This document shows positions 31,791-32,094 of a DNA stretch of 64,000 nt, piece after piece. Every line of letters starts with the position of its first letter. Positions within the stretch are counted from its first letter, which is position 1. The position numbers and the translations under genes are program-made. Origin of the DNA: Klebsiella phage vB_KpnM_Tauntaun_ER47; the sequence record PP738783.1. One strand, written 5' to 3'. The notes below the pieces were generated by a model, which saw nothing but the letters and a program-made list of their open reading frames with translations, was not told the origin of the DNA and searched no databases.

Positions 31791-31859
31791 ACATACCTCA
31801 ATTTTTCAAAGAACGGGGTTATTGTAGTAACTTACGAAATGAAGTCAATACAAAAGACC

Positions 31860-32015
31860 ATAAAAATTTTGATCAATAATACTTGATCTGATCAAATTTA
31901 TGATCTATAATTTATTAATTAATAATTATTTTACTACAATGATCATTGTAGGTCAAGTACTAAAATCAATAAATTTTATATAATTTAGATCTGATCTATA
32001 GATCATTAGATCTAC
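31860..32015. promoter_or_regulatory. GATC-dense AT-rich divergent intergenic region with a 14-bp perfect palindrome TGATCTATAGATCA
   Basis: 9 GATC tetramers in about 140 bp of AT-rich DNA (about 0.4 expected); TGATCA/TAGATC repeats; lies between the divergent rnh and gene 55. Confidence 0.5.
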
Positions 32016-32094
32016 TTTAACCTTAAATAATATAGAATGAAATTTGATTTTGTCTACAGTTATTATATAATATTCTTAACTTCAAAGAGGAAAT

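Follow-up and report, generated by a model that had tools for sequence, protein, structure and literature searches.

We analysed the intergenic region between the divergent genes rnh and 55 of Klebsiella phage vB_KpnM_Tauntaun_ER47, within a stretch of 64,000 nucleotides from sequence record PP738783.1 (hereafter the window, with positions counted from its first letter). The window comes from a T4-like Klebsiella phage, a KP15-like Slopekvirus in the family Straboviridae. From 31400 to 32500 its sequence matches KP15 (GU295964), and numerous further records, at 100% identity, and it is distinct from KP15 in approximately 1 kb of extra sequence further along. For genome-wide scans, the rest of the KP15 genome was joined to the window (approximately 175 kb in total). 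The intergenic region contains a dense cluster of GATC tetramers and a pair of predicted promoters that face each other, and it is related to two other regions of the genome. Its features are as follows.

30855-31790, minus strand: rnh (RNase H / flap endonuclease), which heads the leftward rnh-dsbA-33-59-32 block (list of open reading frames (ORFs), KP15 annotation)
31791-32094: divergent rnh/gene 55 intergenic region, 304 bp, 22% G+C, copy 1 of three Slopekvirus elements
31821-31848, minus strand: predicted proximal rnh promoter, TTGACT-16-TACAAT (consensus scan, KP27 RefSeq)
31871-32012: GATC cluster, nine GATC in 142 bp, 20% G+C
31883-31956: unit of two face-to-face sigma-70-type promoters, TTGATC-N17-TATAAT, 16 A/T, ATTTTA-N17-GGTCAA, 72-74 bp (pattern match)
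31883-31911, plus strand: P(+), predicted rightward promoter, -35 TTGATC at 31883-31888 and -10 TATAAT at 31906-31911 (consensus scan, KP27 RefSeq annotation)
31912-31927: 16-bp spacer of A/T only that separates the two -10 hexamers, core of the unwinding-prone segment (read from the sequence)
31928-31956, minus strand: P(-), predicted leftward promoter, -35 TTGACC at 31956-31951 and -10 TAAAAT at 31933-31928 (consensus scan, KP27 RefSeq)
31934-31951: perfect 18-bp palindrome CTACAATGATCATTGTAG centred on the GATC at 31941, covering the 17-bp spacer of P(-) (31934-31950) and the first base of its -35 (repeat search)
31985-32014: palindromic block TTAGATCTGATCTATAGATCATTAGATCTA with four GATC, containing the 14-bp palindrome at 31992-32005 (repeat search)
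32023-32036, plus strand: TTAAATAATATAGA, with the 13-nt core TAAATAATATAGA (intergenic comparison with the RB43 group)
32044-32071, plus strand: predicted proximal gene 55 promoter, TTGATT-16-TATAAT (consensus scan, KP27 RefSeq)
32095-32622, plus strand: gene 55 (late sigma factor) (ORF list, KP15 annotation)

The original prediction, which had drawn attention to this region, was exact in its description of the sequence: all nine GATC (31871, 31885, 31890, 31902, 31941, 31988, 31993, 32001 and 32009), the 14-bp palindrome TGATCTATAGATCA, the TGATCA/TAGATC arrangement (three TGATCA and several TAGATC/GATCTA hexamers) and the two flanking genes were found where it had placed them. It had also noted that the cluster would lose its significance if GATC were over-represented throughout the genome. 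Such an excess does exist, with 413 GATC in the whole window against 271 +/- 16 in dinucleotide shuffles (6.45 per kb), and GATC is commoner than any of the other 23 A/C/G/T permutation tetramers in the KP15-type genome (1148 in approximately 175 kb). CTAG, another of these tetramers, is strongly avoided (86 in the same DNA). The cluster is locally significant all the same, because 0.92 GATC are expected per 142 bp at the global rate (Poisson P = 5.5e-7, or approximately 2.5e-4 once the number of windows is corrected for), and the densest other 150-bp stretch of the window has at most five. Local composition predicts 0.2-0.6 GATC for the cluster, the mononucleotide composition of the 304-bp region predicts 0.55, and 5000 dinucleotide shuffles of this region gave 1.1 on average and at most 6. 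The GATC cluster was thus confirmed to be real. The intergenic region does not have a credible small-protein ORF, and a structured RNA was rejected as its content because there was no Rfam match at E <= 1.

The consensus scan detected four sigma-70-like promoters in the intergenic region, two opposed and two gene-proximal, and the identical four promoters are annotated independently in the KP27 RefSeq record. When the starts are placed at the usual 7-nt distance from the -10 hexamers, P(+) is predicted to start at about 31918, 177 nt upstream of gene 55, and P(-), which is directed towards rnh, at about 31921. Both predicted starts are inside the shared A/T spacer and nearly coincide, and face-to-face promoters with almost coincident predicted starts are an unusual geometry. 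Relative to the P(+) start, GATC sites are at -47, -33 (in the -35 hexamer), -28 (in the spacer), -16 to -13 (abutting the -10 hexamer) and +24, the last being the centre of the 18-bp palindrome over the P(-) spacer. The palindromic block at 31985-32014 is beyond the promoter unit, 67-91 bp upstream of the P(-) start. Direct repeats in the element, as found by the repeat search, are of 8-9 nt, in two copies only and irregularly spaced.

The ordinary early promoters of the phage have a different form, TTGAC...TATTAT inside terminator hairpins and without GATC, and by their sequence the predicted GATC-bearing promoters are a class distinct from them. In the ordinary promoters, the terminator hairpin contains the TTGAC -35, with the -10 placed after the T-run, and these promoter/terminator cassettes resemble the PeSL elements of RB49-like phages. 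Note that they are labelled 'putative middle promoter' in the records (KP15 75862-75902, 82918-82955, 92938-92975 and 154835-154873). T4 middle or late promoters were considered for the GATC-bearing elements and rejected, because neither a MotA box nor TATAAATA occurred above chance. A temporal switch between the paired promoters based on AsiA and MotA was unsupported: the genes beside the holin gene gave no Pfam match to AsiA or MotA, and tblastn with a T4 AsiA sequence, a weak test, gave no match.

Three related elements in the genome

Only two further AT-rich, GATC-rich regions were found in the KP15 genome:

KP15 101802-102075: gp3/orf152 divergent intergenic region, 274 bp, 10 GATC, 23% G+C
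KP15 approximately 136390-136580: gp24-uvsY intergenic region, 5 GATC, 12-20% G+C

The three elements align pairwise over approximately 215-226 bp with 68-69% identity, and each of them is quasi-palindromic. In BLAST searches with the rnh/55 region, most Slopekvirus genomes among the matches listed had 3-4 matching places per genome. The elements have in common a unit of approximately 72 bp, TTGAnn-N17-(GATC)TATAAT, 13-16 A/T, ATTTTA-N17-nnTCAA, of which each element has one or two. The approximately 175 kb contain the full pattern at exactly four places:

Window 31883-31956: unit of the rnh/55 element
KP15 101879-101950: full-pattern unit
KP15 101995-102065: full-pattern unit
KP15 136466-136394, minus strand: full-pattern unit

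No match to the full pattern was obtained in 100 shuffles, and nhmmer detected no copies in the genome beyond these four. The copies are approximately 60-70% identical to one another, and the only invariant columns among them are TTGA, GATCTATAAT, ATTTTA and TCAA, which is the footprint expected of two opposed promoters, here predicted ones, together with one GATC. This GATC abuts TATAAT at -16 to -13 in all four units, and the rnh/55 copy has a further GATC in the -35 hexamer (TTGATC). The TAAAAT promoters of the pairs point towards rnh, gene 3/gene 1 or uvsY. In the uvsY element, the GATC-TATAAT promoter is antisense into the late gene 24, with no gene there to express. From these results, it is very probable that the elements are copies of one repeated, promoter-bearing element.

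The surroundings of the units differ in detail. TTTAGATCTGATC, which is related to the palindromic block at 31985-32014, precedes one unit in the gp3/orf152 element. A perfect 11-bp inverted repeat, TGACGGGGTAA / TTACCCCGTCA, flanks this element (KP15 101846-101856 and 102111-102121, approximately 255 bp apart), and ACGGGG is also present at the left edge of the rnh/55 element (window, about 31813) and of the uvsY element. An exact-pattern scan of IMG/VR for the unit retrieved only Slopekvirus contigs, plus two chance hits in coding sequence. Natural variation is uninformative as a test of conservation, because more than 100 genomes are at least 99% identical over the rnh/55 region and the most divergent record, that of phage CPRSB, is rich in errors.

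Ranked by nearest-neighbour free energy over 200 bp, the three elements also come out as the least stable DNA of the genome: their z values are +6.1, +6.9 and +7.6, against +3.6 for the stretch that follows. The rnh/55 copy ranks third in the genome, with z = +5.0 to +6.1 for 100-200-bp windows at its A/T spacer. In the three cores (633 bp, 12-19% G+C), GATC occurs 22 times and each of the other 23 A/C/G/T permutations 0-3 times, and 45% of the G+C bases fall within GATC. GATC therefore appears to have been selected as a word, beyond its membership of a fixed hexamer. The rnh/55 and gp3/orf152 elements are at the two minima of the cumulative GC skew, namely the strand-switch points.

A second-tier GATC cluster was seen in coding DNA of higher G+C content (10 GATC in approximately 370 bp, 43% G+C; KP15 126507-126874), in the 5' part of gene 18 just past the terminase genes. 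It is only marginally significant after correction for multiple testing and contains GATCTATAAT and GATCAGATC, words common to the intergenic elements; the equivalent 500 bp of RB43 have 5 GATC.

Apparent methylation of the GATC sites

The GATC sites of the cluster appear to be methylated. KP15 virion DNA is reported to be sensitive to DpnI, i.e. Dam-methylated (PMC3620542). The D12-class Dam of the phage group is KP15_214 (Pfam E = 1e-34), which is outside the window. The gene at 17146-17922 (minus strand), which the original prediction had taken for an N6-adenine methyltransferase of the phage, encodes a methyltransferase with only borderline Pfam matches (N6_Mtase/MTS), and its product belongs to phrog_3820 ('DNA methyltransferase') and not to the D12 Dam proteins. 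A Dcm-like C5 methylase (KP15_105) is also present in the phage group.

The record of phage CPRSB (OM971649) lends weak support to the methylation of GATC sites. It is an error-rich assembly with many split genes and 174 indel columns in 38.6 kb; compared with window 12105-51309, its DNA polymerase is split into 7 ORFs and its recA into 5. Its differences from the window are 3.5 times denser within GATC than outside it (4.1% versus 1.2% per base, P = 1e-11) and consist there largely of G>A changes at base 1 and C>T changes at base 4, a pattern which we take to be the signature of long-read miscalls at GATC with N6-methyladenine (6mA). The affected sites number 41 of 264 overall and 5 of the 9 in the cluster (P = 0.006). 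These differences are not evidence of natural GATC loss: the CPRSB record is unfit for variation analyses, yet it looks like an accidental methylation footprint. A single G>A at 31988 in one IMG/VR contig may share the same miscall cause.

Position-equivalent repeats in Pseudotevenvirus

In the sister genus Pseudotevenvirus (RB43, RB16, Miller, CfP1 and Cronobacter and Enterobacter phages), the gene order is as in the window, the coding DNA beside rnh/55 is approximately 73% identical to it, and the intergenic lengths are similar. At rnh/55, the only intergenic motif common to the window and the RB43 group is TAAATAATATAGA, upstream of gene 55. This motif may have a regulatory role for gene 55, or it may supply the -10 region to a promoter on the minus strand (TAGACA-16-TATATT). 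At the matching three loci, RB43 has an unrelated palindromic repeat of approximately 170 bp in three copies with 81% column identity, and a copy of this type was also found in a metagenome contig:

RB43 segments, 2060-2240; 3650-3835 and 38380-38550: RB43-type repeat
Metagenome contig Ga0172378_10192870, approximately 1085-1260: RB43-type repeat

In the RB43 repeat, an invariant AT core, TATTTTATATATAGAGAAAA, is enclosed by inner inverted repeats and, outside these, by GC-rich ones (GAGCGAAGCGAA / TTCGCTTCGCTC). The inner repeats show compensatory changes between species (ACTACA/TGTAGT, TGTAC/GTACA and GTCTAC/GTAGAC), with GGGTAT/ATACCC in a more distant metagenomic relative, and no DNA in the 50-kb RB43 segment examined is less stable than the AT cores. 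Most of the approximately 63 Pseudotevenvirus records have the repeat in exactly three places per genome, and it is unannotated in the records listed. At rnh/55, it is located between ordinary rnh and gene 55 promoters. The repeat could form a cruciform or a hairpin, or encode a structured RNA.

Position, copy number (three), palindromic symmetry and an easily melted core are thus conserved across the two genera, whereas sequence, promoters and GATC richness differ: the RB43-type repeat has co-varying nested inverted repeats rich in G+C, no internal sigma-70 promoter and 1-2 GATC per locus. The conserved properties speak for a function shared by the three loci, one for which GATC is not needed, and against chance or a selfish repeat. 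In Krischvirus and Jiaodavirus, no large element was found upstream of uvsY, where these phages have the T4-like 26-25-uvsY order with a gap of approximately 45 bp. A scan of IMG/VR and metagenomes for intermediates between the two element types returned only near-identical Slopekviruses, RB43-type phages and the one distant RB43-type contig. The product of orf152 was considered as an element-specific binding protein and rejected, since its identity to the RB43 homologue is 74% in spite of the unrelated elements, and no Pfam domain was found in it.

Possible functions and likeness to known systems

The three elements are probably early promoters and, as far as can be read from their sequence, may also be methylation-marked replication origins. 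The reading that we favour, though tentatively, is that each element joins an early promoter to an unwinding module in the manner of T4 oriF/oriG and that its Dam-methylated GATC sites are a component under selection. In the first step, which the sequence largely bears out, the elements would serve as early promoters for the host polymerase, and the TAAAAT members would drive rnh, gene 3/1 and uvsY. RNA polymerase coming from either side would melt one A/T segment, with starts within approximately 3 nt of each other. In the second step, the elements would act as transcription-primed (R-loop) origins, potentially primed both ways. This origin function, which we consider possible but somewhat doubtful, is suggested because T4 oriF and oriG are built in this way, from a promoter and an extremely unstable duplex downstream of it; in the elements, too, easily unwound A/T-rich DNA is directly downstream of a predicted promoter. 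In a third step, for which the case is weaker, the methylation state of GATC would set promoter or origin activity. Infecting DNA in the fully methylated state and its hemimethylated daughters would behave differently, directly or via SeqA, which the host has as an enterobacterium, and methylation would further reduce duplex stability. Such methylation-dependent control seems to us unlikely on balance.

A more specific form of the favoured reading, which we regard as improbable, makes the elements methylation-gated, bidirectional, transcription-primed origins, whose facing promoters would open one A/T segment, prime both leading strands and fire only on fully methylated infecting genomes. Firing would be restricted by the 6mA-lowered stability of parental DNA together with the capture of hemimethylated daughters by SeqA, and the sister genus would serve an equal purpose at its three loci by a cruciform-forming palindrome.

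The original prediction had proposed a replication origin of the oriC kind or a methylation-sensitive promoter region. This proposal is partly supported, in so far as the region is promoter-dense, easily melted, recurrent near uvsY and gp3, enriched in GATC as a word and apparently methylated, and it is rejected with respect to the oriC type, as described below. A methylation switch specific to gene 55, also proposed, is unlikely because the module is present at two loci unrelated to gene 55.

Several observations weigh against the favoured reading. The mapped T4 origins have 0-1 GATC per 400 bp, so that GATC density is lineage-specific and cannot be read as the signature of a T4-type origin. 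The RB43-type counterpart is likewise poor in GATC and promoter-less. The positional match to T4 is exact for uvsY only and is at the level of the neighbourhood for rnh (oriG) and gp3 (oriE), and some positional coincidence is expected because strand-switch regions are few. The GATC spacings in the cluster showed no clear helical phasing that would favour SeqA, and the four right-hand GATC (31988-32012), outside the promoter unit, are unexplained by the model. Finally, the 9 promoter-like hits in the region compare with 3.8 +/- 2.2 in shuffles, and the weight of such hits is limited because AT-rich DNA easily yields -10-like hexamers.

The main rival explanation, somewhat unlikely in our judgement, is that the elements are dense, strong early promoters of host type for rnh, 55, 1/3, orf152 and uvsY and have no role in replication; the opposed pairs would then provide interference or a choice of direction, and GATC at the -10 and -35 hexamers would tune promoter strength via Dam. 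The promoter footprint kept in the four units, the annotation of these promoters in KP27, the aim of every TAAAAT promoter at a gene needing pre-replicative expression and the GATC-poor origins of T4 all agree with this explanation. However, it leaves unexplained the extreme instability of these three sites and the GATC-TATAAT promoter antisense into gene 24, and the sister genus keeps at the three loci a palindromic AT-cored repeat without promoters, located between ordinary ones.

A binding array for a phage or host protein recognising GATC palindromes (TGATCA, AGATCT and TGATCTATAGATCA), as the original prediction had also suggested, is improbable. The promoter likeness would then be secondary, and the array could be a repressor/operator system or could serve a factor of the nucleoid or partition type. 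In its favour, overlapping palindromes crowd the block at 31985-32014 beyond the promoter unit, GATC recurs as a word at varied positions, and the three copies are alike within each genus, as would be expected of a common trans-acting factor. On the other hand, the invariant columns fit promoter hexamers at an exact 17-bp spacing and not a single repeated operator, and no candidate protein was identified, orf152 not co-varying with the element across the genera.

It is quite improbable that the elements are a non-functional or selfish palindromic repeat, similar to a miniature inverted-repeat transposable element, that spread to three intergenic regions and is rich in GATC by ancestry. Its quasi-palindromic form, the inverted repeat around the gp3/orf152 copy and the several copies per genome would suit such a repeat, but the three loci are filled by unrelated sequences in two genera, three copies are fixed in most of the Pseudotevenvirus genomes, promoter hexamers are selectively conserved among diverged copies, and no further copies or fragments are present elsewhere.

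A DnaA-dependent origin of the oriC or P1 oriR type, or a P1-like pac site with Dam-controlled cleavage, is very improbable: the dense GATC in AT-rich DNA, far above expectation as in oriC, the two groups of four about a central site and the three TGATCA superficially resemble P1 pac, which has 4 + 3 hexamers, but the remaining sites are TGATCT or AGATCT, the element is at three loci and not one, and the phage has T4-type gp16/gp17 terminase genes, which imply headful packaging without a fixed pac site. DnaA boxes (TTWTNCACA, <=1 mismatch) were hit 1, 0 and 0 times in the three elements, where approximately 1.4 hits are expected by chance, and GATC-led 13-mers (GATCTnTTnTTTT, <=2 mismatches) gave 2, 2 and 0 hits against approximately 0.6-0.7 expected, which is not convincing, with only one of them (31902) in the core. 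IHF sites, MotA boxes and late promoters did not occur above chance in the elements.

To our knowledge, replication origins of T4-like phages have been mapped in T4 alone, and we know of no account of how those outside the T-even group start replication. In Slopekvirus there are three candidate elements with related sequences and sharp limits, and three position-equivalent ones are found in its sister genus. We know of no developmental role for T4 Dam, and if the favoured reading is true, the elements would provide the first example of a T4-like phage whose replication or early transcription incorporates Dam/GATC control. Slopekviruses are widely used as Klebsiella therapy phages, and knowing their origins and strongest early promoters would aid engineering. 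If the elements are promoters only, the finding is a modest one, a distinctive class of GATC-bearing promoters arranged face to face. The four promoters are already public, annotated in one record (KP27 RefSeq). The GATC clustering, the face-to-face unit, the three-locus distribution, the least-stable status and the position-equivalent RB43-type repeat are novel in that no description of them was found in the literature on KP15/KP27, Slopekvirus, RB43 and T4-like comparative genomics, of which our coverage is incomplete.

Among known systems, E. coli oriC and P1 oriR resemble the elements in an approximately tenfold GATC enrichment in AT-rich, easily melted and apparently Dam-methylated DNA, whereas the elements are without DnaA boxes, initiator iterons and 13-mer repeats, are present at three loci and have promoters as their conserved scaffold. 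Origins of the iteron type (T4 oriE, plasmids) were not matched, as evenly spaced direct repeats of approximately 12-22 nt are absent from the element. Dam-sensitive promoters (IS10 pIN/pOUT, IS50, dnaA P2 and P1 cre) similarly have GATC within or against the -35 and -10 hexamers, and in the face-to-face pairs of IS10 and coliphage 186 (pR/pL) the opposed promoters are also near enough for mutual exclusion. The Slopekvirus unit differs from these pairs in that the predicted starts overlap by approximately 0-4 nt, compared with tens of nt, and in that the module occurs four times per genome.

The T4 origins are the nearest parallel to the favoured reading. T4 oriF consists of the uvsY promoter and a downstream unwinding element, and oriE, oriF and oriG are near strand-switch points and have no motif in common (PMC3016281). 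According to the T4 GenBank record, oriF is at the start of uvsY with the uvsY transcript as primer, oriG is within gene 34, 2.2 kb from the rnh start, with a primer antisense to gene 34, and oriE is within gene 5, 3.4 kb from the gp3 start, with a primer antisense to gene 5. The Slopekvirus elements similarly pair a predicted promoter with the least stable DNA of their region; one of them is directly upstream of uvsY, and the others are near rnh and the gp3-gp5 module, at strand switches. The antisense transcript into a late gene that is predicted for the uvsY element (gene 24) corresponds to the primers of oriE and oriG. In contrast, the T4 origin promoters are MotA-dependent middle promoters, whereas the Slopekvirus ones have sigma-70 -35 and -10 hexamers without a MotA box, and two facing promoters with a common start region characterise the Slopekvirus elements.

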